From contig NW_026515671.1 in the NCBI RefSeq assembly GCF_025526975.1, forward strand, positions 1,612,001-1,676,000: DNA of 64,000 nt, in the 5' to 3' direction. The notes beneath the pieces are model-generated. The model saw nothing but the letters and a program-made list of their open reading frames with translations, was not told the origin of the DNA and searched no databases. The stretch comes from Fimicolochytrium jonesii. Its lineage: Eukaryota. Shown here piece after piece: positions 42,169 through 64,000 of this stretch. Numbering within the stretch: the stretch's first letter is position 1; each line of letters starts with the position of its first letter. Both the position numbers and the translations under genes were made by a program.

Positions 42169-42927
42169 CTAGAAAACTTGTCCCTCTTCCATCTCCTCAA
42201 ACACCGGCCTGTAAAAGTAGAGGTGGCTGTTGCGACCTGAACCTTTACGGGAGGCGACTCTCTTCACTCTCAGGTTGCGGGTAAGGTAATTGAAGTATGC
42301 GTTATAGTTCTCGGGGGGTACGATTCCATTCTCAACGGGAGAATGGAGAAACTCCGCCAAGATGATGCGCATTACGTCGTTCTGGCGCTGGAAGGCCAAC
42401 CTTGGTAGGATATCGGTCTCGAAGCGGCCCGTAAAGCTTCTGTACTTGTTGTTCCGAATCTTCATGTCCCAGTAGTCTCGAATTGCATTCCGAAAGTGAT
42501 CTTCCGCATGGCAGAAGTGGTTGACCAGTTCCGCAGGCCGCATGGCTACGGTTGGACGAGTCGGCCTGATTCGGGAATGAAACGAATGTTCGAAAAGAAT
42601 TTAGAACGGGTATGCGAGGCTATTTGGCTCGATATTGGTTTCCGCAACTTACACAGGGTTGCTGACCGCCGCTTCAGAAGGTCCACGTCGTTCGAGGGCC
42701 TCCACGCAGGCAGCCAACTCCACCTGCCCTTGTTGCAGGTTAACTATGCGCTCCGTGTGAGCCGCTATTTGATTTTTGTTTGCGGTGATTCGCTTCCTGT
42801 TTACCGTAATTGCTCTCTTGTTTGCCGTGATTCCCTTCTTGTCTTCCGCTATCAAAGCTTCGAGCCGGTCTTGCCTCTCGTTATACGATTGATGCCATGC
42901 TCGAATCTTGGGGTTGGTAGGAACCAT
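42169..42927 (-). CDS. Orphan two-exon protein (about 223 aa) with an Asn-layer coiled coil
   Basis: Intron 42566-42652 (GTAAGT..TCAG) joins ORFs 42649-42927 and 42169-42543 in frame. Heptads ITANKRA-ITVNRKR-ITANKNQ-IAAHTER. Confidence 0.65.
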
Positions 42928-44017
42928 CTCGTCTGGACGCCGAGGAGGAAGTGGGAGCTGGGATATAGGGTGGCCTAGTGAATGTTGACGAGAAGGAGCT
43001 TTGAACGAAGCAATGCCGACATCCGGGCTTGACGGGCTTCTTATAAGACGACTGGCGGCTGCCGCTTCATGGACGCCGAGCTGTTCAAGTCGCCGTCGAA
43101 ACCTGACGGTTGTGTGAGCCTCATTTTCTGGCTGTGATCATGTGTTTGATGAAGAAAGATTGCACCCTTTTTCTTGTGCTACCTCCCTCCGTTGGGGCGA
43201 TAAGGTGAGGAGGGGGGGGGGGGTGGGGAATTTCCCGGAAATATTGAATGACAGGCCCAGAGGTGGCTGCAGGACATCACCAGGTGCAACCCATGTCCCG
43301 CCGTCGCCACAGGTCGCTCACTTATTGTGCTGCGGAGACCTTCCCCATGCCGAGGAGCCGGCGTAATGCTCTTGCTACTTTTTTTTGATCGATGGGTTGA
43401 TCCAACGAGACAGTATGGTTTCAGGGGGCGCCTTTTCGCCCATGTCAACATCACGCGCATGTGGTGTATGGGTATTCATTCGTCTTGAAAACGCATGCAG
43501 TATCGTCGGTGGAACCAGCCTCCCCTCTGGCAAGTTCCTTTCTTTTGTGCACACTGAAGCCAGCCACCTGCTTCGAGCTCCAACCCCAGCTCCCCACTCT
43601 GTGGCTGCACTGCTGTCCCCTCCTCCCCTTCTCTTGGCAGCCTCGGCAATGTCGGCAATGTCGGCAGTTTTGACCTGGGAATTGCAATCGCAAAGGGAAG
43701 TTAGCTGAAGTTCTTTGTATCGTTGTTGTTCTGCCAGTGTCGCTCACCAGTTTGGACTTAGGGTGTCCACAAAGTCTTGGTACGAGTTCGGGGTTCGGCC
43801 ATGTCTCGGTGTGTGTGTGTGTCGGCGAGACTTGTCAGGGTGGAACAGGTTCCAAAAAGGGCCCCGATATGTGTTCCTGTCAAGGATCCTCATGTGATCT
43901 GTGGCTTAGAACATGTGACTTGCAGACAGTTTATCTCTTTTCTTCCCCTATTTGAGCTTCGGCTCGTCGTTGTTACTGTAGTACGCTTTTGTTCTTTAGT
44001 CAAAAATATCATTCTCA

Positions 44018-44832
44018 CGTGTACGGATCGGGCGTCCGATCGGGCGTCGGGCGTTAGCATTAGGGCTCCGTCCCGTCCGAAGTAAAGATCCGCCTCGCTC
44101 AAAAACTGGTAGGCGTAACTTCGGAACCAACCATGGGATGGGCCGGGTTTGCCGCGGCCCGGGTACAGGCCCGGGCGTCCCATGGGCTCTCACCGGGATG
44201 GGATGGGACAAAGCTTCTGAGACCCGCTGTTTGGGCTGTTTGGAAAGGCGGAAGCGCAAGACGAAGCGGGTCGGGCGCCGCCGCGTTAGCTTCTGTTCGC
44301 GCGGGCCGCTCGGAGGATCGGAGGCGGCGGGCGTGGGCATTCGTATTACAGTATTTCATGTATCACAACGCTTCTGCAACTCCGCCGAGTCGCCGACATT
44401 CCATGAATCGTACTGTATGTTCTCTCATATGATCGTCGAATCTATTATGTCGATCACAATCGATGTGTCATCGATGTTCCATTGTATAGCCTGTAGGCGC
44501 CCGTAATTCATTAAAAAGTAGTACGGCGCCCTCGCTCCGAGTCGCTCGTCGAATCTACTATGTCAATCCCAATCGATGTCTCATCGAGGTTCCACTAAAA
44601 AGTAGTACGGCGTCAAAGATTCTCAGCAACGGCCGAGGCAGTATGGCATGTCGCCATAACCTGGTTTCTGGACGACACCCCACGCCTGGCAGGTCGACGG
44701 GCCAATTGAAAGCGGCGGTAATTGTCTTGGTGTCATCTTTCACAGACACAACCGGCAGCGGCAGCGGGTGCAACTCATTCGTGTACGGATCGGGCGTCGG
44801 ATCGGGCGTCGGGCATTAGCATCGGGCGTCGG
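44018..44832. mobile_element. Repeat-rich, non-coding, TE-like segment (possible non-autonomous element remnant)
   Basis: About 43-bp direct repeats CGTGTACGGATCGGGCGTC..TTAGCAT at 44018 and 44780; a GC-rich hairpin CCATGGGATG..CGTCCCATGG at about 44131-44185; an internal duplication at about 44433-44528 and 44547-44612. Confidence 0.45.
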
Positions 44833-46444: not shown

Positions 46445-46868
46445 GGTGACAGAGACATCCGCTGCGAGTCATTTAATCACTCTTGTCCCTTCCTGGGAGC
46501 GCTATGCCATGGTACGACGTAATCTCATATATAGTAGTGATAGAAAATGTCCAAACAGCGTTACCTAATCGAATGTATAGGTTGCATTCGATTAGGTCAC
46601 GCTGTTTGGACATTTTCTATGTAGCCGTCCCCTTGATCGCAAGGATAGAGCAGCAAACTCCTTGCATGAGAACATATGGGATTCAAAATACGTGATTCAA
46701 TCATAGGAAGAGCGACAAGAACGAAAGAGCGATTTCTATCCACCCCTGATTCACAAGCTCTCCCCCAACGCCCCCAACCGACGTTCTTCCGATGTGTCGC
46801 CGTCCCGGATCGATGTGCAAGAGTCCGGGCCGTTCGAAGGTACCTCATCTCCTGTTTCCTGTCAGATC

Positions 46869-48857: not shown

Positions 48858-51800
48858 TCAAACATCTAAGGGCCCTGGCCCTGGAATCGCGCTTCCCTTT
48901 TTGTCGTCGCTGCCACTTTCGCCCTTCCGTTCTGCCGTAGGTGGCAAAGTCGGTCTCCTTCCTGCCGAGGTCCCCACCACGCTTAAATCTCTACCCCTCC
49001 CACCCGCATTTACGGACCGGCAACTTTTCTCCACATCTTTCTGCTGGAGTTGGGTAAGCAGCGCGGACCAATTGGTTGCATCTGCCTCGCTCAGTTGCAT
49101 TTCGATCGTGCCGATCTTCCCACCAGCTATGATCCGCAGGACTTGCTTCTTCTCCCGCACTGGATCCAGTTCAAACTTGAAAGTATCCTCTCTCCAATTG
49201 CAGGATAGAGCCGAGCACTTGAAGACAAACGATACGAAGTCAGTTTCAGTATGTTCCCCACGATACGTCGGTCATCAGATGGATCGGCAGTATGGACTCA
49301 CATCAGGATACACATAAATGACCGTATGGTGCGCCGGCAGACATATCACATGGACATCCCTCCATGGGCCAAACATGAGCTTCGGCTTGAATCGCGCCAT
49401 CATTTGATGTTGGACCACATTCGCTAGACCCTCTTGCGCATGATTCGACACCGTCTGGCTAGTGATCGAACTCTGTCGGCTATCATCAACCCGGGCCGTT
49501 GCTCGGATGCCCGCTTTTAGTCCCAATCCGTTTGATGGCTTCAAGTCGGATTCTCCTTTTCTCAGGATCAGCCATGCCTTTGGGGCGAAGGTCACGGTGA
49601 GAATGACGAACGATGCGGACCAGATCGCGATCGCGCGAACCATGAAGACTAGGCTTGGCGTTGTTCCTGGCATGAAGACGACGGGAAAGCCGAGGAGACA
49701 AAAGACGATCACGTTGTAGGAAGCAATGCCGAGCTGCTTTGATTCGTTGTACTGCAGGGCGACATTGCGATTCTGGTCATGATTGAGCACACCGGAGAAT
49801 AGTTTCAGTGAGACGCAAATATCCGCACACAACCGTATCCACTCACCACGAACGCAAATAAAACAGTGACCCCCAGAATGAAACCGTTATATGCCATCAA
49901 CATCGTGCTCCACGTATTATTGGCAGACTGGCACACAAGGTAGTGATCCGTCGATTCCGGATTCATCATGACCGGTATTGGAGGGGAAGCGGCGCCCCAG
50001 ACAGCGATCATGATTACATTAATCAGAACAAGCGGGACCGTCGCCTGTAACAATCGCATATCTTTCAGCGCCTTTTTGGATGGCCTCGGATTGTTAAAAA
50101 TGTAGTAGATGCGGAGGTTCTTGATGCAGAGACTCCCCAGCGATAGCGAAAAGCCGATGGCGAGAAGGGCGGGTGCAACTATACAGCTGGCTCGGGTGAC
50201 GGGACCAGCATAGAACAGGTTCGAGATGAAGGTCAAGGCAAGACCCAATAAGATCAGGCCCAGGAAGATCGGACTGGCGGCTTTGATGACTTTCCGTTTG
50301 ACGTAAATTCTGGTGAACACCGCGGCGGCCAGGATACCCAGCAAGCCGACGCTGCTCAAGAATGCAACGAAGATTCCCAGCGGAGCGCTGTAGGCTGTGT
50401 ATGGAACGCAAGGTATCACGACTTGGATGGCGATGGGATCAGAAGTTCTCAGATCATCTATCACTTGGTAGGAAAGGGTGTCGATCCCACAACCTGTCGG
50501 GTGGAAGGTCAGATCAAGTCGATAGATGTGTGAGGAGGTATTGGAAGTCGCGGACAGAAGCTCGGCATTAGAGATGCGCTCGCCCGCTGCATTTGTCAGA
50601 TATCCTATCCCCGGAGGCTTGGTGATTTGAAACTTCGGAGTCCGCTCGTCCCGTTCATAAGCTTCAAGCATCACGGTGAATGGCAGAACATCTCCGGTGC
50701 CACCATTGAGACGTGATACCGGATAGCTCATTGCCATTCCCTCGGGGGCCGTCGCCGGATGAACCAGGGAGGTCAAGTGGATGGTGACGGTGCTCGTTTC
50801 GGATAGCTGGGAGAGATCCCCAATGCAGTCCGTCGCCCCGTAGTCAAACCCATCGACGCCACTCTTTGAGGGGTCGGGCACGTACACGACTCGATACTGC
50901 ATGTCGGTGACATAGCCAGCTTCTAACCGGTCAGTCCCCACGTTCTCAATTGCATCAATCTCCTTCCATCCGTCGAGTTTATAGTTGGCACGATCCAGCC
51001 TAATTGCATCCGTCTGGAAAGGTGTGCCACAGACGCCCGGCGAGTTCATCAGGTAGGTCTGCGATATATATGTGCCCCTTGATGAGTACAGGTCTTTCTG
51101 CGCTGCGCCTTTCCACACTGCGATCCAGTCGTTGGTGGCAGGATGCCGGACGGAGATGATCTCCGTAGTTCCCGGATTCAGATTTTCGTATCTGTTTCCC
51201 AAGTTTTCTTTCAGCAGATGAAACGAAGGATGAGGTCCGGTGAGTGCAAGAAACCTACGAGTTGATGCTAACAATATGCGTCGCTAAATCATATCCAACC
51301 TCAACGAACTCCATCGCATTCGGCGAAGGCGGGCAGTTCCATCCCCATGGATTTGCAGGACCCTTTGGTTCGCACTTGACACCCCTCGGCGTACTTGGAC
51401 ACCAGGAATCTTCAGAGCCGCCATAGCCGAGATCCGCGCGACTTGCATCATATTTCTCTGGCGCGCCTAGCAGAGCATTGACACCATAGCCAGAGTATTC
51501 ATCTGTCCAATAATACTGGGTGCTAAAACGCAGAGTCGGATCACTCGGCCAGGGGATGGTTCGGTTCGGGTACTGTGGAACTCGGCTAACCCATTGCTTC
51601 TTTCGTGGCTGACTGATCCGCCACGGTGTAAAGTACTCTGTAATGGCTTCCCCAATGTAATTCGGTGGATTAGTTTCATTGTATTGATACAGCTTGCCGA
51701 GTGTCGGAAGCGAATTGATGGTGCACACCAGAAGCCGCTCATCCGAGTCTTGAGTGATTGCATTCAATTGAATGATGATCGAGGATGCGTTTTCTTCTGA

Positions 51801-54548
51801 GATGTACGTGCTGAGGAATGGAAAGCCGTCCCATCCGATGTTGCTCGGTTGCTTCGGGGCCGCTGTCCACAGGGGGAAACGGGATGCAGATCCACCGCCC
51901 AGCTGACCGGCATAGGATCCAGCAGGCCCGCATAAAGATGCCTCAGTCGTGCTTGCGGAAACCGGTGCACCGCAAGCTGCAATACCCTTGCTGCCCTCAT
52001 TTAAATGCCACACTACGCTCAAATTGGCCGTCTCTTGCGGTCTGAGGAGAACATTCAAATTCCTCGATCCTCCCACAACCCCTTTCGACGAATTGAAAAT
52101 GGCAATCTCGTCCAATCCACCCTCGTATCCTTTCCCGATTACGAGCCCCGTTCCGCTGGATGGTATGCCGGCGGTGGAAACATGTACGTCTTGTACATTA
52201 TTGTTCACGTATATACTGATCTCTCCGCTCGAGTCTTTGCTCACAGCTACATGCGACCACTGCTGGGAGGTGATATTTGCGCGGAGGAGCGGTTGACCGG
52301 CGACGGCAAAACGCAAGACGTTGTGCACTTGATCCATAGTGAGAACAAGCGTATCGTCTGCGGTAGCCCATATGCGTGCCGCAGTAGACGACGATACGGG
52401 GTCTGGCCATAACCACATCTCCATAGTGAACTCCGCCATCCCCAAAAGTGGGTAGTTCGGGAAATCTATATGGTGTCGATTTGCAAATGTCAGATAAAAG
52501 GTGTTGACGCCAGCAACGGCCGGAATCCCGGTCCTTGCGGCGAGGTTGATTGTCGCGACGGCGTTGTTGGTTGAGACTATCCCATGCTCGCCTACTACGC
52601 TGAACTCGAACGTGTCAAATGGGGCACCGTGTTCATTGGGGTGTGGTACATATTGGATGCCGTCTACTTCGGTGTTCACGACATCACCGACACTCAACAG
52701 CTCCTTTCGTTGCGGGACGTCGTTCCAGATCAAGGTCGCTCTATAGATTGAACCGCGAATTGGAAGTGTCTGCACAATCGCACCTTTAAATGGCCCTTGT
52801 GCAAAGGGGCGTGCCGTCAGAGGGATGAAGATGTTTGCAGCCCCCGCTACGACATCCACGTGAACATTCCGAGCAGTCAGCGATTTGGCAACGATGAGTG
52901 TCACGGTCGCCGATGTCGGCGCTGATGTGCCGTCGGAGATCTGGTACGTGAATGTACAGCTAGCATCCACTGCCGCGGTGGAGGACACCCAAATTGTGTC
53001 ACTGTTGCCCGGGATAACGCTCCCATCAACGGCGGGTGTGACGGAGTCTAGGTATATAGACCATCCGGCTGCCGTGGAACAGGTTTGAAGTGACTGGATT
53101 GACGTGGTGATCTGTGCATTGGGGACGTCAGAAGAACCGGGAAGCTTGACGCTGGATAAGGACGCCGACGGAATGAAGGCCCGCACTCGTCGGCTGCCAG
53201 TCAAGGGGGCATCGGAAGGGATCCAAGAAGGTCGTCGGTTGCATTCGACGTTCTGTTTGCATGTGCCACAGTCAGTCAACATGAGAGAAATCAACATCAC
53301 GGTTGGGATCCTCCCACTTACGTCCGAGACTCCAATTCTCCCAGCGGGGCATTCGACAACATCCGCAAACGCATTCTGACCTCCCAGCACCAGTGGGTTC
53401 GCAGTTGCATCAACCTCATTCAAAATAGTCTTGCTATCGCTTTCCAGTATGTCCATCCCCCATTTTGCGAATAAGCCCGCGGTGCTTCCCGGGAGCACGT
53501 GGTGCATATCCGCTTGAATCTCTTCCTGCGTCCGAACAACGTTCCATATCTTCGTTGAAAAAGGTGAAGGAGCGTTGACGTAAGTCAATATCGAGTGCAA
53601 CGACAAAAGCGCAAACCCACCCGAACTTCATCCATAACCCCCACAAACGCCTTCAGGTCCTGAAACGAGCCATAGAATGCATCCTGGTCCTGCCCCAACA
53701 CCAAAGCGACCGTGCTCGTAAGATTAGCGCCCACTAAGTAGTCTTGCGTCTCGGTGTTTTCATCGCTGTATTCTAGGTCGCCGTTGAGGTAGAAGTGGGC
53801 TACTCCTGTTGTGACCTGTGAGGGTGTGAGTTGTTGCCCGAAAGGGGAAGCATGTGTGGGCGATGAAGGGATACGTACATCCAGTGTGAGCGCTTTAATG
53901 GAAGCAATCCGTGTGCAGATCAACAGTTAGTCAAGCTATGCGTCCCCGGAACGACGCAACATATCCATTGACCCTACCCATATGCTGCCACTCCCCCAAC
54001 CGAAGATCCGTCCAATTCGTCGCAGACTAATAGCAAGCCGCATCAGCCCAAATATCAACAAAAGCACATTACCCAAGAAAAATCACAAACCAAAATGGCC
54101 CCTGCGGTATTCGACAACAACGACGCATAGCCATTCTGTACATTAATGTAATCATCATCAGCGCCATCATCCACCCCCTCAAAATTGAATGAATGCAACA
54201 CGGCGAGGGAGAAGTAGTGCGGGTTTTGGGAGACGAAGGGGAAAAAATTGGTTCTGCGGTTGTGAGGAAATGTCGGGTTAGCTATTTTCTTCATCACATA
54301 TAAAGGAGGGACGCTGTCCATCACTCATACTTCGCCCAAAACTCGATCGTGAAAGTACTTGGAGGCCACTGCGTTACGATTTGGCCGTACGAGACCCCGT
54401 CGACGATGCCTTGGCTTCCGATGCCGGCAACTGTGGTTGTGTTGTAGAAATACAATGCGTTGCCTGCGCCGCCGGCATACAAGGTCGCTTCCGTATAGGG
54501 AAAGGCGACGCAGGCTAGAAGGAACAGGAGAAGGAGACAGATGGACAT
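48858..54548 (-). CDS. Class C (7tm_3, GABA-B-like) GPCR with very large LamG/Ig-like/FBXL4-like ectodomain and PH-like cytoplasmic tail, multi-exon
   Basis: Signal peptide MSICLLLLFLLACVAFP; LamG motifs FTIEFW, VGVMDEVR, FTMEMW, QWSHVAV and GGLDEIAIF; 7TM motifs KVIKAASPIFL, GFSLSLGSLCIKNLRIYYIF, YNESKQLGIASYN and TFAPK. Confidence 0.88.
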
Positions 54549-54943
54549 TGCGTGGAAGTACGACACTTTGCAAGAGTAGGGGCGCCGTTTGGGGCCGCTG
54601 CCGGAGAGCTTGAGGAATTACTTCCTCAGAGGGCAGAAAAGTCTTTTGCGATATTGACTGGCTCCACCGCGATATTGACGGACGCTTTCATTTCAAATCC
54701 GGGATTGGTTGAGAATTCTCTAATTGTCAGAAAGTCGTACCCTGAGCAGCAGAATTGGGAAGAGAGAGAGAGATCCGAGCCCTGGAGGGAGGACGGAACC
54801 TAACTGTCGGAGGGCCGTCTTTAGTCCAGATTGTACCTTGCCTTCATCTACTGTGTCAGCGTCATTTCGGTTTGCGGAGTCGCGATTACCCAAGCATCCC
54901 ATTCATTCATTACCGTCGTTCGAAAACAACCCTGACTCCAAAA

Positions 54944-55100
54944 TGTATGAAAATCATACAACAACGCAAACAACACCGTGGGTCTCTCTACAACATACAA
55001 GAAGTATTGTCGCATATCTTGCGATGCACGCAGGTCCGTGTGCCATCGCGGGTGGGAATAGCTAAATACGTGAGGCTAACTATCTAAGGAGACTAGAAAA
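54944..55100 (-). ncRNA. Candidate Fanzor omega-RNA scaffold
   Basis: Four consecutive stem-loops directly 3' of the Fanzor stop, at 55058-55083, 55021-55049, 54989-55014 and 54944-54960. GTCTC (55089-93) and GAGAC (54982-86) could close the first three. Confidence 0.45.
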
Positions 55101-55102
55101 CT

Positions 55103-55965
55103 TCACCACAACTGTGCATCAGCTAACCAGCCCGGACCATTCCATCTCGGTCGATGACCGTTGTAGTGTGAATATTGATGAATCAGGAACCGAAAGTTGG
55201 CGGCAGCTTGAATGTCTCTGTCAAAGATGGGCGGCATATCAGGAGGTATCTGGCATGTTGGGCACTATCAAGTCTCCAGTTTCTGCCCATCTCGTTGCGG
55301 GACTCTGGGCACCTTGGAAACAACATCGGTTCCGCTTCATCTGCTTCTTGCTCGCACTATCGTCGGAGTCCGTGCCTGGCCGGAGCCTCCCGGTGTCGAC
55401 GATACCAGTACTTGGGACGATGTTTGCATGTGCCATAGGGTTGCCAAGAAGCCCTGGTGTCGTGGATATTGGCTTCTGGAAATTGTCCGGCGAGGGTCTC
55501 GTAGCCTGCCATTGAATTATGGCATTGTGTCGTAGTGCCCATTTCAGGCATGATGAAGACAGTTGCGCCGGCAACGGCCAGTTGTCTGGCAAGGCTCTTG
55601 ATTGGCACGGTGCCATGTGGTTTCTGCCAGCCACGACGTGTGAAATCACCAGAACCAAAGGCGAAAACGGGTTGATGTTCCAAGCTGAATGCGAGCCTGT
55701 CTTCTGGGTGGATGTTATTCCGTGGGGCATTGGTGTGACGATCGTAGTGGTGGTTTCTAAGGCATCGCATTCGGACCTTGTACCGATGGTTTCTTCTCAG
55801 GCCGGCGCCTCTGGCCAGGCCAGATGTGTGGCCAATTCGTTGCGTGGATGCCCAACGCTCGTGGGTGACGCGCTTCATGAGGTGGAGGGCATCATCCATC
55901 AACGCTCGCTGCTGATGTATCTTCCAAAAGTGTTATGGATGACGCGCCCATACCATAAGCTTACC
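55103..55965 (-). pseudogene. Fanzor1 (TnpB-derived RuvC nuclease), C-terminal half, disrupted
   Basis: WYGRVIHNTFGRYI/QRAL helix, VFAFGSGDF..HGTVPIKSLARQLA..VFIMPEMGTTTQC (rearranged RuvC-II Glu plus TT-x-x-C), CPTC, FDRDIQAAANF (RuvC-III) and GHRP. In-frame TAGs at 55357 and 55265 plus two apparent frameshifts. RuvC-I not found. Confidence 0.78.
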
Positions 55966-55977
55966 TACTGACAGCCG

Positions 55978-56059
55978 CCAATGTCAACTGCCAATGTCAA
56001 ACGCCAATGTCAATGTCAATGTCAGTGTCAATGTCAGTGTCAATGTCAATGTCAATGCC
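55978..56059. repeat. (CAATGT)n hexanucleotide tandem array
   Basis: About 12 CAATGT/CAGTGT units abutting the 5' break of the Fanzor relic. Confidence 0.9.
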
Positions 56060-56213
56060 ACTCCCCCTCTCTCCTCTCATTTCGCCAATCCCGCCTCGGC
56101 TTCTCCACATCACCCCACTACTTCTCCATAGCCAGGCCACTCCTCCTCTCTGCTCTCATTTCGCCAATCCCCCCTCGGCTTCTCCACACCCCCCACCACT
56201 TCTCCATAGCCAG
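56058..56213. repeat. Tandem duplication of about 77 bp
   Basis: CCACTCC..CTCTCATTTCGCCAATCCC..CTCGGCTTCTCCACA..ACTTCTCCATAGCCAG occurs twice head-to-tail. Confidence 0.85.
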
Positions 56214-56493
56214 CAGCTGTAGCAATGATCTCTACGCTCGCCACGCACGCTCTAGGAGCATAGCTGGCGCCCCCGCCGGTCCCCTCTTGTTGTTGTTGTT
56301 CTCTGGCCTGCTGGGTTGCCTATCTATAACTAGCCGCCCTCTCTTCGTCCATTCCCTTCCTCCCCAGCAGATCAACACCAGTTCTTCTCATCTCCTGTTC
56401 TAGTCCTTGTTTCTTGTTTTGCCAATACAATCTCTTGTCGCCTATCACTCTCGCCTTGTCTTCTCTACTTCGCTTCCGCCTCAGTCGTCGAGA

Positions 56494-57720
56494 TCATAAC
56501 AGAAGCAATCTTGTGAAAAATTTGTTGGCCGGCTCTTCAGTTCTCTCTTCCGGCCGACGGCCGGCAATTTCCACCCGGTACCACCGCGCCAAAGCGCCGA
56601 CGTGTTGTCTTGCTCCCGCCGCATCCCGGTTCCTCATCGAACCCAAAAGTCTGGCCAACGACTGACCCAGCTCCACGCTCATCGTCTCCAGTCCGAAACG
56701 CTCTCCAGTAAGGATGTCCTGGAGAGGACCGTCAAATATCAACTGAACCGCAGTTCCGGCAAAACAGGTACCACCGGCACTCGGTATGCCAAATCTTGTT
56801 TGAACCCCACCCCCCCGGCCTCCCCGTGAGCCCGGTGTCATTGTTCCCCGGCCTCTATCTCCCCGGCCTCCATCTCCCCGGCCTTGATCTCCCCCGCCTC
56901 GCTCCGGCCGCGCTCCACGAGACCCAGTCCTACGGCTACCAGGAGGGGGGTTGAAGCCTTGTGGACTAGGCATCAACGGAGCTGGCATGGTTTCGATGGC
57001 ACTCCACACAGGCAAGTCTTCGATTGGAAGGCTTTGCGATCCACGGGCGAGGGTGTCGTCGTTGTTTCTGTCAGGCGGAAAGGGGATGTGCACCCGGACA
57101 CCTTCAATTGACCGGAGCAGGTGGTGCGTGTAGGGCCCGGTTGAAGATTCCGACTCGGTGCTGGTTGTTGCTCGTCGAGGCTGGGGGTCAGGAAGGTCCT
57201 CAAAAGTGAGAGGCACCACAATCCGAAGGATGGTTCTCCGGGGATTCGCCGGGTCTGGCGAACGCGTGAGGCCCATGGACATGGGGATGGTCACATTGGG
57301 AGGGAAGACAAGCCACCCGTCCCGGTTGATGGAAAACATTGCCGAAGGCTGAATGTACCCATGTCCCGACTGGCTATGGGAGCCGTCGCCTCCATCTCCA
57401 TCATGCTCTCCAGGTGGTTGGTCAGGCTGCTCCGCGGGGTTCGGCTTGTCGGATCGTTGAGGCTGTACCGGCGGGATCGGTGGCTGAGGTGCTGGAGGTT
57501 CCGGTGGTTGAGCTTGTTCAGCTTGTTCAGGTCGTTCCGGCTTGGTTGCGGTTTGTTCGGTGGTCAACGGCTCTGGCCTTTCTGGGTGTCCCGTTGACGG
57601 ACCCAATGGGGCTGGTAGATTTACACCGGCTTGCTGTGTGCTTGGTCCTGCCGTCCTAGAAGGCCTAAGGGGAGGCGGAGGCTTTGGGATTCCAACGGGC
57701 AGATTAGGTTCATTGGCCAT
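56494..57720 (-). pseudogene. Pro/RGG-rich ORF ending in a truncated USP (peptidase C19)-like domain
   Basis: RFGIPSAGGTCFAGTAVQLIF resembles the USP Cys box (GLxNxGNTCY/FxNSxLQxL), and EEPANKFFTRLL resembles the QxDAxEFLxxLL box. No His box before the stop. Confidence 0.5.
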
Positions 57721-57800
57721 GGTGGAAGTTGTTGGAACGGATGCTTGAACACGGGGGAAACTTGCGGAGGGGTCTTGATTTCTACGACGTGGGTAGAAAC

Positions 57801-57885
57801 AATTGAGAATGCAAAGTATACGTACTAGAAAAGGGTGGATATCAATTGAGAATACAAAGTATACGTACTATAAAGGGTGGATATC
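57801..57885. repeat. 43-bp tandem direct repeat (2 copies)
   Basis: AATTGAGAATGCAAAGTATACGTACTAGAAAAGGGTGGATATC followed by a near-identical copy, about 80 bp upstream of the USP-like ORF start. Confidence 0.9.
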
Positions 57886-58025
57886 TTTCCAAAATGCCAA
57901 GAAGTCTAAGCAATAGGGGCTTGGGGAAGTGTCAATGTTCCAGTAGAATACCGTCTTTTCGAGGATGGAGAAGTCAGCGCTGTTGATGATTGATGACCAC
58001 TTGCACATTTGAGCCCTATATATAC

Positions 58026-60450
58026 CTAATTCGAGACGACATTTGACCGGCCTTCCAACGCAGCCTTATTAATCTCCTGCTGGAGAAGGATATGGGCGAC
58101 TTGATGCCAGTTTGTTTGACAGCGGCATGACAAGTTGGATAAGGTAACGTAGCAGGCAGGACGACCGTCCGGTATCGTTATCGTTCTAACCTGAATCCAA
58201 CGGGCAGCTGGCCGCTTCGTATAAACTGTAATAACCGAAACATAAGACACTGACCAAGCCTGTCACACTCAGCCACATGCTGTGCTCAGGGTCTCCTCAG
58301 GTGCTCAGCTCACAGTGTGGAGGAGGGGCATAATATTATGGTGGATTTGTGACGCCCAACAACAGTGAATATTCCCTCTGTCCATGCAGTTGGAAGGAGA
58401 GTAAAGATTCTCGTCTCAACATTTTGGATCTAGATCTTAGAGTTCATCGCATTCGATTAAGTTCTGGCAACAAACCGTTGACGTACATAAATGTACATGT
58501 TACAAAAGAAATCCGGGTTGACTTGACTTGAGGACGACGACGACGACAAATAGAGAGAGCGGGCGCTCCGACCAGCCTGCATCCTGAGCCCGCCACCCGT
58601 CAGTCTCGAGTCAAACACAAAGCATCCCAGCACGTTCCTAAAAATAGTAGGTGCCAAGATGCGACCGGTGATCCACAACAGGTTGCTGACGCACGATAGG
58701 GCACCCGTTCTTCCCATGGCATTGTTCAGCAAGCCAGGCACAAATCTTACACCACGCTTTAGAGAGAAGATCCCTAAAAATAGTTCCCAACTCAGGCGTG
58801 ATGCTCGAAATGCGTAGGTCGTGCCTTCATATAGCATGAGCGGCCCCGGGGCCGTCCGTAACGCTCCCCGTGTTGCTTCACAACGGCCGTGCCATCATCT
58901 TGACGTCTTGGTATACTGCTTCAGGGCATGAAGAAGTAGCATCTATTGCAAAAGGAAAGACAGATGTGAGGACGATGATCTGGACGACGACTGGATAAAA
59001 CCCGATTGATGCCTACCTCTCGAGAGCTAATCCCCGGCAGTCATCACAATCTCAAACAGATTAGTGTTTGAATTGTGGGAGCTGCAATATGTCCCACATA
59101 TGCAGGTAAGGAGAGCGAAGAACGCATCTGGAGGCAACAAAGAATAGTGGAACATTAGAAGGCGAGACCGAAGAACGCCACTTTGAATGGAAGGTGGACT
59201 TGCTTACCAACGAGATGCCAGTTCTTCGACAACGACGACGCATAGCGACTCTCACCATCATTGCATGAGATGGAGTGCATCAACGGAGTACATGACCTAA
59301 GGTGAGAAACAAAGGTGGATATAAGATAGCGACGACGACGATGGGCTAATGGTGCATGAGCAGTTGGAGTCACAACGGTACTTACCATCAATCATGTAAA
59401 CCTCCGGCGAAATGTACTGCACGACACATCAGCGTTAACGATGGAGCGCATATGCACTGATAGACCTGGATGAGTAAGATGAATAAGACGAGGGAAATTG
59501 GGTTAGCAAAGACCGTATAATAAGGGTTGATTGATTTGCAGAGGTAATACTAACCATGTGTGTGATCTAAGACCAGCAAAGGAGCGCCCATTGGTTGCAC
59601 GTAGTCGGCAGTGAACGTATGCTGCGATTGGCATTGGCCTTGTAGCGACGAATGGCTTGTGATTGATCTGTGACTGGGACAGTGAGTTTAGAATGGGACA
59701 ACCGGCAACGAACACCTGTCGCACACGAGTATGGTATGGAAACAGACCAGCTTGAACGAGTGCCAAACGAAAGAGATGTGGCGATGATTAATTCTGGCGA
59801 TGATCGCGATGAAGCATCTGGAGGTGAACTTTGTGGCGCTGGGAGTACAGTACGTTCAGGCTGGAGCGTATTTGTAGAGTAACTGTCACTTAAGTGAACC
59901 GAAGAGATTGCAGATGAGTAGATTGGATCAGATCGGGATCTAGATTGGGGGAACGCCTTGTTGAAAAAAAGTGAACGAGGTAAGGCGCAAGGACACAGAC
60001 TTTTATACGTATGTACCCGGAAGCGACGCGTCCCTCGGTGGCAAATGGGGTCGCATAGCCACTCACACGTGTTTTGCCCAGATTCGTATGGACACATCTA
60101 TTAGTTTTCCGTTTTTTTGCCTGAATTTAAATAGCAACAGTGGTTTTCTGCACGCGTTCAGGACAGATGACAGTTATTAACACTGAGTTGGGTGCGGACC
60201 ATCGACGCATAGAAAATGACAAGGCCGACGGGTCCGAGACGTTAGATGTAGGAGCCGGGAAGATCCGTGAGGGATGGGGGGACTCGGGAGTACGTGTAAT
60301 GGAAGGCAAAGTAACACTGTACTGTACGCATGGGCTTTATTCACGCGTATCGACCACCCTCAGACGTGTTGGGCGACGGGCTGAATGCGGCGCATGTGCA
60401 AGTATCAATACCGAGAGAGGGTTAGATTCTCGCTGCATATACAAATGAAA
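58026..60450 (-). mobile_element. Highly decayed multi-exon gene, possibly a Mutator (MULE)-type transposase relic
   Basis: SWIM-like YVTLSNLSCRCQTNWHQVAHIL at about 58085-58150 (third Cys absent). Several GT..AG intron-like segments at about 58930-59385 and many stops. No DDE triad confidently seen. Confidence 0.3.
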
Positions 60451-61840
60451 CGTCCACGCTTGTTTCTTCTGATGTGCATGAATCGTATGTGAAAAGGCGG
60501 CAGTGAGGTGTCGCTCTAAGCTGAGCTGAACTTGGCCAGGAGGCGTAAGGAAGTGGTTGCGTTACTTCATATCGAGTCAAGGGCCGTCCTGCAGAGGTGA
60601 GAGAGGTGTGCGAACAAAGCTACCCCACCAAATCGGAGGTGCATCGAGCATCTGTTTGTATCAAATTCCGGTCCGCAAAGGTGAATAAAAGGCTTTCAAG
60701 CGAGCGAAGCGAACGGCAGTACATCGACAGAGGCGCAGACGTTCTGTTCAGGCGGAAGTCGCCAAATCCCATTCAAAAATGCTTCTCGATTGGAAAATCT
60801 TAGGATTAGGCGGCGGTGCCGGAGCCAGTAGTGGCTCTTTGAGGTCAGGTCAGTGACTCTCGTGGCGTCCTTCCTGTTTGGCCCGCCCGCCTGCGCCGAG
60901 CCGTGCCGCTGGCGTAGGAGGAAGATCCGCCGGGGTGGCGACCACCACTGGCAAGTTTCAACGAGGTCATTTCAGTCATCCGCACGTATGCGCTTCGTGG
61001 AACTTGCTATCTGCTTGTCGATACCCACACTTTAGTTCTCGAAGATGTTCCCCACCATATCATAACCCCGGCCCCTCTTTCCATTTACCGTGGAACGCAT
61101 TGGGTGGGAGCGTTCATTATTTGTAGTGAATTTCGTATTCCTCGAAGCGGAGTCGTTGACGGGGAACTCCCTGAGCGTCCATCCTCGAGACCTGACCCAA
61201 TGATAGACGGACCAGATGGTGTATAGTTCGCTGCTATTCCGTGCTATTAGAAAGGTACTGGCCTACTCTGCAAACGCGTGTGTCATCAACTACTGAAGAA
61301 CACGCTAGATGTGACTTGGGTGTTACAATGTAACCCTAACCCTAACTTATTCCGTGCGGAAGGCTAAGGCGTGGCATGGCAGCCGGATCACACCCCCCTC
61401 AGATTCTACGATGCCTCAGGATCTACTTTGCTTAGAAAATGGCGATGCATCAGGAAGAGGGAAAACCCCTGTTACACTGCTTATGTGGGTGCTGGGGGTA
61501 TATATATATGATGGGAGAAAGAAGCCCTGCGAGGGCAAACTGTTGAAATCGGCAAGACGTGTCCGATTCGATTTCGCCTGATTTCGCCTTCCCCTCAAGG
61601 TCTTACAGAACTCAGAATTCGCTCACAATCCTCCCCAATTTCCACAGCATCGGTTCCCTCAAACTCAAGCTCAGCACGGAGATAGCCTTCACTTCCACGT
61701 TCAGGTCCCGCTCTATTTGCCAACGCCAGCATCCTCGTCGGAAACGAGATCCTAACGAACCCTACAAAAGGAAAAAAGCGGAGCTTATCGGCATTCCTCC
61801 ACACAATTCCCCCATCCCCAAAAACCCCATCCTACAAACA

Positions 61841-62560
61841 ATGAGCAGCACACACATTGACGCACCGGTAACAACGCCTTCAGATCCCCCAGCTCTGACC
61901 GATGCCATGGAAATCGATGACGCCCCCACACCCTCATCCTCCAGCGACCACCCAACCCCCAATCAGTCCACAGTCACCGACACCGCAACAGTTACCCTGC
62001 CACAGCGGCCCAACCAAGCCGAAGGCAAGGGACCAGCAGTAAAGGAGAAGGAGGAAGAAGAGGAGGAAGAGGAGAGCTCGTCGGAGGAGGATGAGGCTGG
62101 AGCGGACGCAACGTTGGGAAGGCAGGATAAGGAGACGATGCGGAAGGATAGAAGTTTGGCGGAGTTGTTAATGATGATGGATGAGTATAAGCCTATTGTG
62201 AGTGTTTAAAGATTCCCCGCTTCCCCAGGCATCTGTTCTTCTTTTGCAGAATCCTTGATTAAACTCCCCACCTCCCATAAACAGCTGCCCGACTCAGTAA
62301 CTGACTACTACATGACCCGCTCCGGCTTCGAATGCGAGGACACCCGCGTCAAGCGTCTCCTCGCCCTCGCCGCGCAAAAGTTCATATCAGACATCGCCGT
62401 TGATGCGCTGCAGTACTCGCGCATCCGCTCGCAGCAGCCGCTGCCGAAGGACCGTAGGAGCGTCGTGAAGGATAAGAGGACGGTGCTGACCATCGATGAT
62501 TTGTCGGCCGCGTTGGCGGATCATGGGGTCAATATCAAGAAACCGGAGTATTATTTGTAG
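61841..62560 (+). CDS. TAF10: Transcription initiation factor TFIID/SAGA subunit 10, two exons
   Basis: LAELLMMMDEYKPI|LPDSVTDYYM..SGF, RVKRLLALAAQKFISDIA.DALQY and VLTIDDLSAAL..HGVNIKKPEYY. Confidence 0.95.
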
Positions 62561-62848
62561 ATTGACTGCGTGCGGGAGGGGAGTGGAGTTGGGAATGGAG
62601 AGTGGAATGGCAAGTGCGACACGGAAACCGCACAAAGCGAGGTTGGCTTCGCTTCGACAAACATAAATTATCATCCGAGTCAAGAAATATCGTCGACATC
62701 AACCCCAGCCCTATCCCTCGACTTTGCCCCCCAAAAATTAGCCTTCTGTCCCTACTATACAATCCACCCCACGCTCGCAGAGCCCCGCATACATTTTGGA
62801 ACACCCTCCCTTCATCTGTACATAAATTCTTTCCTCAAAACTCGTCGA

Positions 62849-64000
62849 TCAAACCTCCAGTAGATAAACACTATTGTACATGCCCCCCAAATCCATGCCT
62901 GCAAACACAACCATCGCGTCTTTTGCCGTAATCGCGATTTGCGCTGTGGTGTTGGACGGGTCGGCGTCTGCCATTGACCCGATGAGCGGTGCGTATTCCG
63001 TGATGGCGCATGCGTCGTGGCCAAGGCGAGCACCTGGCGGGCCGGGTGGGAGAGATGCTGGGTCGAGTTTTGTCCATACTGTGTGGACTGCAATGAGGTG
63101 GAAAAGGCGTGGTTGGTTGATGGAAACACGCTGTGAGACGGATGAAAACCATACCAGTCTCGAACACGTAAACGTCTTCAAATGCTTGAGTTTTGGGTGT
63201 CCGTGTCAGACCTCCGTATACATAAATCTTGTCCCGGTTCACAGTCGCCGAGTGCCCTGAGCGAGGCGACGGCACGTCTCCTGTCCCTTCCAAGCATTTC
63301 CATTCCCTACTCACTGATACGGATGATGGTTTAGTTGAACATCCCAAACGAGATCCCATTCGACCACCGAGGGACCGGAGGGGCAACGCACCTGTATCAA
63401 ACACCCACACATCATCAAACGTCACGTCACCAGCCATGCCACCAAACAAGTAGATTTTCGTTCCTACGGCCGTGAACGTGTGCCCTAAACGCGGCGCAGG
63501 TGCCGGCTGCTGCGACGGGGCCGTTAGTCGCGTCCAGAATCTGTTTGCTGTTTCGTTGTCAACATCATGGTCACTTGCGTCTCATCTATCACACTGTGTG
63601 TCGCTTCCATGATCAACCCACCAACATCGAAACAATACACGCATCCATCGTCCACAGCCTTGTCATGTTCCGCTCCACCGCCAAAAATGTACACCCTCCG
63701 CGACCCGCTACGTTGATCTTCTATCGCGGCTACGGACCGCAGCGTCCGGGCTGATGGCGCCGTGCCTTTCGTGCATAGAGATGTCCATTGCTGCTTATCT
63801 GGGCGGTGGATATCGAACGAACATCAGGATTCGGCCTGCCTCTCGTAAGGGACATCAATCGCACACGCGTAGCAAACTAACCCAGGTCAAACGTCCAGAC
63901 ATCGTTGAGCAGGCCGTCGTTCCCCGCGCCGTACATCACGAGCAGCTGGGATGCGGCGCTTTCGGAGCCTGGGATGATGACCGCGGCGTGCTCGTACCGC
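62849..64000 (-). CDS. Kelch-repeat protein (RABEPK/p40-like), multi-exon; 5' part outside the window
   Basis: Kelch blades RYEHAAV..LLNDVWTFD, PRLGHTFTAVGTKIYLFGG..FDDVWVFD, PSPRSGHSAT..IYVYGG and ARLGHDAC..VVFAG. Confidence 0.85.

Follow-up and report, generated by a model that had tools for sequence, protein, structure and literature searches.

Hairpins behind a broken Fanzor-like gene in Fimicolochytrium jonesii: the possible fossil end of a dead element

Introduction

Does the non-coding stretch that directly follows the stop codon of a Fanzor-like gene in Fimicolochytrium jonesii preserve the scaffold of an omega-RNA, or are its hairpins a product of chance? In published descriptions (PMC10432273; PMC10530073), the omega-RNA is encoded from the 3' side of the nuclease gene into the flank, and the guide is formed by the next ~14 to 15 bases past the end. 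The original prediction read positions 55100-54944 on the minus strand as such a scaffold, named four stems in series, and placed the element end and the guide at 54900-54945, in DNA upstream of a GPCR gene. We analyzed the gene, the fold, the candidate boundaries, and the setting of this stretch within a window of 64,000 nucleotides, which is the whole piece of contig NW_026515671.1 under study; all positions are counted from its first letter.

Results

The window reads as part of an intron-rich fungal genome, and the nearest named relatives of the Fanzor-like gene are chytrid proteins. On the minus strand, an open reading frame (ORF) of 408 amino acids is followed by a repeat-rich junction, the Fanzor-like relic, and the stretch at 55100-54944, after which some 400 intergenic nt lead to a GPCR-like gene (Table 1). 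The likely first exon of that gene starts about 400 nt beyond the predicted hairpins, and its later ORFs matched the Pfam families Laminin_G_3 (E 2.5e-11) and 7tm_3 (E 1.4e-34). Taken as a whole, 49275-54548 on the minus strand looks like a GPCR-like gene of class C (7tm_3), whose large ectodomain is made up of LamG and Ig/cadherin-like repeats.

Table 1. Features of the minus strand around the stretch behind the Fanzor-like relic
Feature	Positions	Strand	Basis
Class C GPCR-like host gene, likely first exon, signal-peptide-like start	54321..54548	-	translation; putative exon joining
6-bp hairpin with UUCG loop, last stem before unstructured DNA; third candidate end	54915..54930	-	fold scan
Perfect 7-bp hairpin, then TTTTG; 54944 as second candidate for the end of the scaffold or element	54944..54960	-	MFE fold
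Span closed by GTCTC/GAGAC (5 bp; 55093-55089 / 54986-54982); candidate scaffold end 54982	54982..55093	-	MFE fold; context-dependent
Hairpin 3; in competition with a longer stem that pairs to 54979-54961	54989..55014	-	MFE fold
Hairpin 2, most context-stable stem	55021..55049	-	MFE fold, context folds
Hairpin 1: stem of 9 bp with three G-U pairs, loop of 10 nt	55057..55084	-	MFE fold; lost when upstream context added
Relic coding frame B: CPTC, RuvC-III-like DRD (55222-55214), C-terminal helix, TGA 55105-55103	55103..55264	-	tblastn, family HMM, codon map
Relic coding frame A: bridge-helix-like region, RuvC-II-like Glu, TT-x-x-C zinc-finger start, long Cys/His insertion	55276..55920	-	tblastn, family HMM
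Junction where Fanzor homology ends: 6-, 12-, and 13-nt tandem repeats plus a 79-nt duplication	55931..56213	-	repeat scans, homology limit
Pro-rich 408-aa ORF, C-terminal degenerate USP-peptidase Cys-box-like motif (near 56790-56730)	56494..57720	-	ORF call; UCH clusters 0.86

The gene that precedes the hairpins is homologous to a family of chytrid proteins with the motif order of TnpB and Fanzor, which supports a Fanzor-like nature for the gene that the original prediction called a Fanzor. In tblastn, frame A was 57% identical to the family protein P0002 over 55920-55588 (E 2e-37) and 44% identical to P0003 over 55665-55276 (E 3e-32), while frame B was 44% identical to P0013 over 55246-55133 (E 4e-6) and 47% identical to P0016 (E 4e-5). 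A family HMM built from 13 family proteins, with the window sequence left out, matched frame A with an E value of 1e-46 and frame B with 1.4e-5. Frame A contains a RuvC-II-type Glu codon at 55545, followed by TT and C with the spacing TT-T-Q-C, and this arrangement is conserved across the chytrid family. In frame B, CPTC lies 10 residues ahead of DRD; the first zinc-finger pair has one clear Cys, and a segment of about 90 residues containing further Cys lies between the two pairs.

The gene is a truncated pseudogene. An in-frame TAG interrupts frame A at 55359-55357, a frameshift between 55276 and 55264 joins frame A to frame B, and neither the family profile nor tblastn found Fanzor homology upstream of ~55920, so that the RuvC-I Asp is unmatched in the relic. 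Since homology is absent above this point, the gene seems to lack RuvC-I and the REC/WED part, and with the N-terminal two thirds lost in addition to the stop and the frameshift, the locus cannot supply its own nuclease. The motif LAVDIG near 55990 was rejected as a RuvC-I candidate, as it lies within tandem repeats and far too close to the downstream motif. In the F. jonesii gene model P0003, similarity is lost and the protein terminates near the frame change of the window (55276-55246), possibly because of a shared unspliced intron or a shared frameshift.

The end of the gene is well placed. Frame B, with its CPTC, DRD, and conserved tail, runs to the TGA at 55105-55103, and the stop codon from which the original prediction counted is therefore the true end of the Fanzor-like gene. 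This stop lies 12 residues after a conserved W, compared with 16 residues in P0013, a placement like that in the homologues. An alternative ending, with an 'IDRD' in frame A at ~55154 as RuvC-III and a stop at 55095, was overturned by the family-profile match in frame B. A coding reading of the tail after the stop, suggested by a D..A..DMR look-alike near 55040, had no tblastn support and was unlike the C termini of the homologues.

An exhaustive phmmer search with the read-through protein of the relic (P0001) returned 11 proteins, ten of which form one family; P0011, an unrelated plant repeat protein, was dropped. Named members are KAI8820779.1 and KAI8826597.1 of Fimicolochytrium jonesii, KAI9095457.1, KAI9105506.1, and KAI9102517.1 of Phlyctochytrium arcticum, and KAI8841399.1 and KAI8847026.1 of Chytridium lagenaria. 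These proteins share with the relic 37 to 57% identity, the motifs W-x-K-x-H-G-x-V-P and E-x-G-T-T, the long zinc-finger insertion, and the DRD tail, but all of them are partial gene models of 272 to 410 amino acids with no functional annotation. The order D..E-x-x-T-T..RD, by which TnpB and Fanzor are defined in PMC3627910, could be followed in P0009 (VDPG at 22, within IGVDPG, and EKGTT at 305) and in P0013 (EKGTT at 217 and DRD at 343). In an atlas of language-model features, P0013 matched clusters of PF07282 (Cas12f1-like_TNB) at 0.95. The PF07282 profile itself was found below threshold in 3 of 11 homologues (E 0.004 to 0.04) and was absent for P0001.

General searches placed the family at a distance from known Fanzors. 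The giant-virus Fanzor1 HMM matched neither the relic nor the chytrid family, with an hhalign probability of 1.7%, while a 12-sequence alignment of viral Fanzor1 controls found PpFz1, SpuFz1, and GtFz1 at E < 1e-47. The best-ranked Foldseek match was PpFz1, at a nonsignificant E value of 4.4 and with a query model of pLDDT 56; a single-sequence structure model of pLDDT 32 was unusable, and a wide structure search with VIA-align returned coiled coils only. Sequence searches of the PDB gave no match for the relic protein or the family, Pfam gave none for P0001, and neither word-indexed protein database searches nor an NCBIfam search with the family alignment (A1) gave a useful one. A profile search of proteins returned three, one of them new; the exact relic ORFs were absent from the protein collection searched, and no intact full-length family member was found in the protein searches. 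The chytrid family is very probably a divergent Fanzor-like group, as yet an unproven member, and its proteins would be RNA-guided Fanzors.

A metagenomic locus related to the family (L125) is AT-rich and ends before RuvC-III. By eye, its positions 697-1300 seem to be split by three GT-AG introns, and the family protein P0012 has a 34-residue insertion at the position of the first of these, which resembles a retained intron. Together, the introns of L125 and the insertion in P0012 probably reflect intron-bearing family members in another fungal lineage.

The family may be uncatalogued. All six family accessions tested were absent from the NCBI Fanzor table of PMC10711439, which does contain other Fanzors of the same species. 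The family motifs were not found in eight of the nine supplementary files of PMC10432273 or in the supplements of PMC10711439 and PMC10530073 (one unrelated match in the latter), a search that could miss C-terminal motifs, so that the firm result is the absence of the accessions. Among the papers listed by literature searches, none was seen to describe this group.

The four stems named in the original prediction are present on the minus strand and in the minimum free energy (MFE) fold of 54944-55100. Their core pairs had probabilities of 0.81 to 1.00, and the terminal and bulge-adjacent pairs 0.47 to 0.79. The multiloop proposed earlier was likewise recovered: GTCTC/GAGAC is predicted to enclose the first three hairpins, with closing-pair probabilities of 0.85 to 0.95. 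A fifth stem at 54979-54961, mostly of G-U pairs, had gone unnamed, as had the UUCG hairpin at 54930-54915. By eye and post hoc, the tail begins with GTTTTC, as do two of the tabulated SpuFz1 omega-RNAs. A search of Rfam gave one chance match only (E 6.9).

The folding statistics did not set this stretch apart from shuffled sequence. The MFE of 54944-55100 on the minus strand had a z score of -1.13, with 30 of 200 shuffles folding as well. A repeat run gave 41 such shuffles among 300, and the definedness of the ensemble was equalled by 19 of the 300. Folding no better than shuffles was the first outcome that the original prediction had named as counting against it. At least five hairpins occurred in 38 of 400 shuffles. 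At least ten G-U pairs occurred in 57 of 400, and on the plus strand the same interval folded better (z -2.04 at -40.9 kcal/mol, equalled by 6 of 200 shuffles). The G-U pairs had been taken as a sign of RNA-level structure; their count lies within the shuffle range, and the better plus-strand fold, the opposite of what selected G-U pairs would give, undercuts the argument for a minus-strand RNA. Folded as DNA, the stretch had a z score of -1.14.

The result was similar when other segments were used. Among same-length background segments of this genome, 31 of the 184 sampled had z scores of -1.15 or lower. None of 12 and none of 7 overlapping minus-strand segments reached a z score of -2, the best being -1.69. 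When the fold was extended to 54900-55105, adding 5 nt upstream and 44 nt downstream, the z score was +0.42, and hairpin 1 and the multiloop were replaced by other pairings. Of the sixteen post-insertion segments of 120 nt, 54940-55059 had the lowest minus-strand z score, a shallow -1.34, and 54730-54909 lay at +1.8 to +2.6. The coding tail of the relic showed no scaffold-like fold (z ~0). For these short sequences, the observed/expected CpG ratio was 1.25 in the tail, with no loss, and 0.83 in the coding part of the relic.

As a control, we used the 3' ends of giant-virus Fanzor1 genes. The control loci (L005-L084), found with a Fanzor motif, comprised 80 viral loci with flanks, of which 69 had a complete C terminus and enough downstream DNA and 64 a shared end motif; 32 ends were distinct. 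Over their last 120 nt, these 32 ends had a median z score of -4.0, with 27 at -2 or lower and 31 at -1.15 or lower; as controls they are AT-rich, anchored on known ends, and of another subfamily than the relic. A 7-bp stem with a TNNNCG loop was present in 25 of 34 ends in a 135-nt version of the set, and this first stem-loop was strongly covarying, two-sided changes being seen in 14 of 23 consensus pairs. This stem-loop agrees with PMC11423790, where a first stem-loop of 7 bp is reported for three Fanzor1 structures, and with the loops that the SpuFz1 and PpFz1 entries show in Supplementary file 5 of PMC10432273. By position and conservation, the control ends are probably omega-RNAs, and in many of them the scaffold begins inside the coding tail. 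The giant-virus Fanzor1 elements also have in common a sharp right end and a two-domain 3' structure, which would provide a ready model of a viral Fanzor1 omega-RNA family.

This first stem-loop was not found at the relic. Within 55300-54600, no 7-bp/TNNNCG stem-loop was present, the best site with a complete loop match pairing at 4 of 7 positions, although the motif may not apply to so divergent a family. Hairpin 1 has a stem of 7 to 9 bp, but a loop of 10 to 12 nt. A possible eroded TAGACG-type loop (TAGATA at ~55087) pairs at 4 of 7 arm positions; it was noticed post hoc and was not used. A covariance model of the viral ends gave no match in 50000-60000; among nine held-out loci, the same model scored four close ones above 100 bits and three weakly, and missed L014 and L125. 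Random change of 5% brought the mean z score of the controls to -2.4 and change of 15% to -0.90. Since 15% decay is enough to bring the controls to the level of the relic, its z score fits a moderately decayed scaffold as well as chance.

Nothing around the relic stood up as a terminal inverted repeat or a target-site duplication, and searches of viral, metagenome, and prokaryote loci found no other copy with its 3' DNA; one viral locus search returned four unrelated proteins. A perfect 13-bp inverted repeat (54949-54937 / 62788-62800), the top match among about 330 start positions, was rejected as a terminal repeat, as it would enclose the host gene TAF10. The candidate scaffold ends at 54982, 54944, and 54915 all lie at least 350 nt upstream of the ATG of the host gene. 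A change from structured to unstructured DNA near 54930-54910 gives a weak hint of an end close to where the original prediction had put it, and nothing further supports that placement. With no second copy, terminal repeat, or target-site duplication found, an element end and guide at 54900-54945 are a guess. The proposed origin of the guide, in DNA upstream of the GPCR gene, agrees with the location of the candidate ends, but nothing ties an RNA to regulation of that gene; a guide taken from the flank would target the empty insertion site and implies no link to GPCR function.

On its 5' side, the relic may adjoin multi-copy sequence, as contigs of a soil sequencing run (X1) hint. Three of these contigs end their match at 55931, and one of the three runs on into other DNA. 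The contigs match 55931-56016 and 56231-56502 at ~94 to 98% identity; they are short and of low depth, and none covers 54700-55915, a gap that carries no weight as evidence. The 408-aa ORF had no Pfam match, and its match to UCH clusters of the language-model atlas is a lead only. The ORF may be part of the element of the relic or of another mobile element, and since its frame runs through scattered stops toward the relic, decayed cargo of this element or of a neighboring one is a possible reading. Just upstream of it, 57787-57901 contains three imperfect direct repeats with a period of 42 to 43 nt, which could be subterminal repeats of the left end of an element.

Other parts of the window also contain repeats. 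An 81-nt near-palindrome at 46540-46620, 89% self-complementary and lying among unannotated ORFs, is possibly a MITE or a hairpin relic. In 42169-44822, short unannotated ORFs, two of which were scanned and had no confident Pfam match, occur together with two pairs of direct repeats of 43 to 49 nt (44018/44780 and 44433/44546); these ORFs and repeats suggest another decayed mobile region.

Discussion

We consider it about an even chance that a dead Fanzor-like element has left its right end as a fossil at 55100-54944, and that this end was once transcribed as an omega-RNA whose guide, derived from the flank, directed the cutting of element-free alleles. In this reading, the non-coding stretch would be the decayed 3' end of the element, which once encoded the scaffold. 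In an active ancestor, the RNA would have extended from close to the stop codon past the element end and on into the flank; its structured part would have bound the nuclease, and its last ~14 to 15 bases, derived from the flank, would have guided cutting of the allele without the element. The hairpins would now probably be eroding neutrally. What suggests an omega-RNA is the position of the stretch, right after a Fanzor-like stop, and this part of the original prediction stands; the fold, which does not rise above shuffles and in which the first stem-loop of Fanzor1 was not found, lends it no such support. That the tail belonged to the element at all is likewise an inference.

The most serious competitor, possible though less probable, is that the hairpins arose by chance in host DNA ahead of the GPCR-like gene, as intergenic or promoter sequence, and that the end of the element was deleted or lay at or inside the last codons. 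This would account for a z score of -1.13 shared with many background segments, for hairpin and G-U counts inside the shuffle range, for the better fold of the plus strand, and for the lack of a canonical first stem-loop; at its 5' side the element is already incomplete, and among the viral controls a scaffold start within the coding tail is frequent. However, the coding tail of the relic has no scaffold-like fold, decay can account for the weak z score, and the coding tail is preserved up to a stop in its usual place, so that a break at precisely this point would have to be coincidental.

Two further readings keep the stretch within a mobile element and give it another function. It is distinctly unlikely that the last hairpins serve a carrier of Helitron type as termination signals at the DNA level, instead of or besides an RNA scaffold. 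The perfect 7-bp hairpin followed by TTTTG has the right form, Helitron-borne Fanzors with 3' hairpins and T-rich targets are described in PMC3627910, and the peptidase-like ORF upstream could be cargo, as a lead only; against this, the DNA fold had a z score of only -1.14, no RepHel-like ORF was present among the nearby ORFs scanned, and the 20 to 30 nt before the hairpin had no asymmetric inverted repeat partner within 55900-64000, although the 5' end may itself be lost. The least probable of the readings makes the tail a ghost-like omega-RNA, still produced on its own, which an intact family member elsewhere in the genome would take up in trans. Its stems are individually well defined in the 157-nt fold, and Spizellomyces is reported to have ghost omega-RNA loci working with SpuFz1 (PMC10432273), but a maintained scaffold would be expected to score like the controls, and the intact family member that it would need did not appear in the protein searches.

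A wider proposal, which we regard as doubtful, is that the relic belongs to an uncatalogued and highly divergent clade of fungal Fanzors, spread over chytrids and intron-split members from an AT-rich host, with a nuclease carrying a multi-cysteine zinc-finger insertion of ~90 residues and an omega-RNA in which the 7-bp first stem-loop, conserved elsewhere, was exchanged for a three-hairpin multiloop, here preserved as a fossil. A single decayed locus has little weight; its value is that of a pointer to a divergent Fanzor-like family. If intact members exist and their scaffold lacks the conserved first stem-loop, they would test the published idea of that stem-loop as the invariant core of Fanzor1 RNAs and would form a new group of compact RNA-guided nucleases.

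The known systems show what is shared and what differs. The giant-virus Fanzor1 ends are like the structure predicted for the relic in having a scaffold at the 3' end of the gene and a multiloop closed by a short terminal stem, but they have a sharp conserved boundary, far deeper z scores, and a covarying first stem-loop that lies outside the closing stem, whereas the closing stem of the relic fold encloses hairpin 1. The omega-RNA of GtFz1 (Xu et al. 2024; PMC11423790) retains the first stem-loop of 7 bp and extends over 17 codons of the coding tail, and neither feature was found at the relic; at ~150 nt and with serial stem-loops, the relic tail is nevertheless within the range of GtFz1. Saito et al. 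(2023; PMC10432273) describe Spu-1, the element of SpuFz1, as bounded by inverted repeats of 30 nt, present in many copies that are nearly intact, and equipped with a 75-nt scaffold of two stems with a TTGTCG/TTATCG-type loop. The relic, in contrast, is a single broken copy in which neither an inverted repeat nor a loop of this type was found; its predicted stems are small and number five or six, and its protein has no detectable sequence match to SpuFz1. The two share a chytrid-type host and a non-coding stretch right after the stop codon of the nuclease. An omega-RNA behind a chytrid Fanzor stop is already established, and the stretch described here would at best be a new, degraded example of it.
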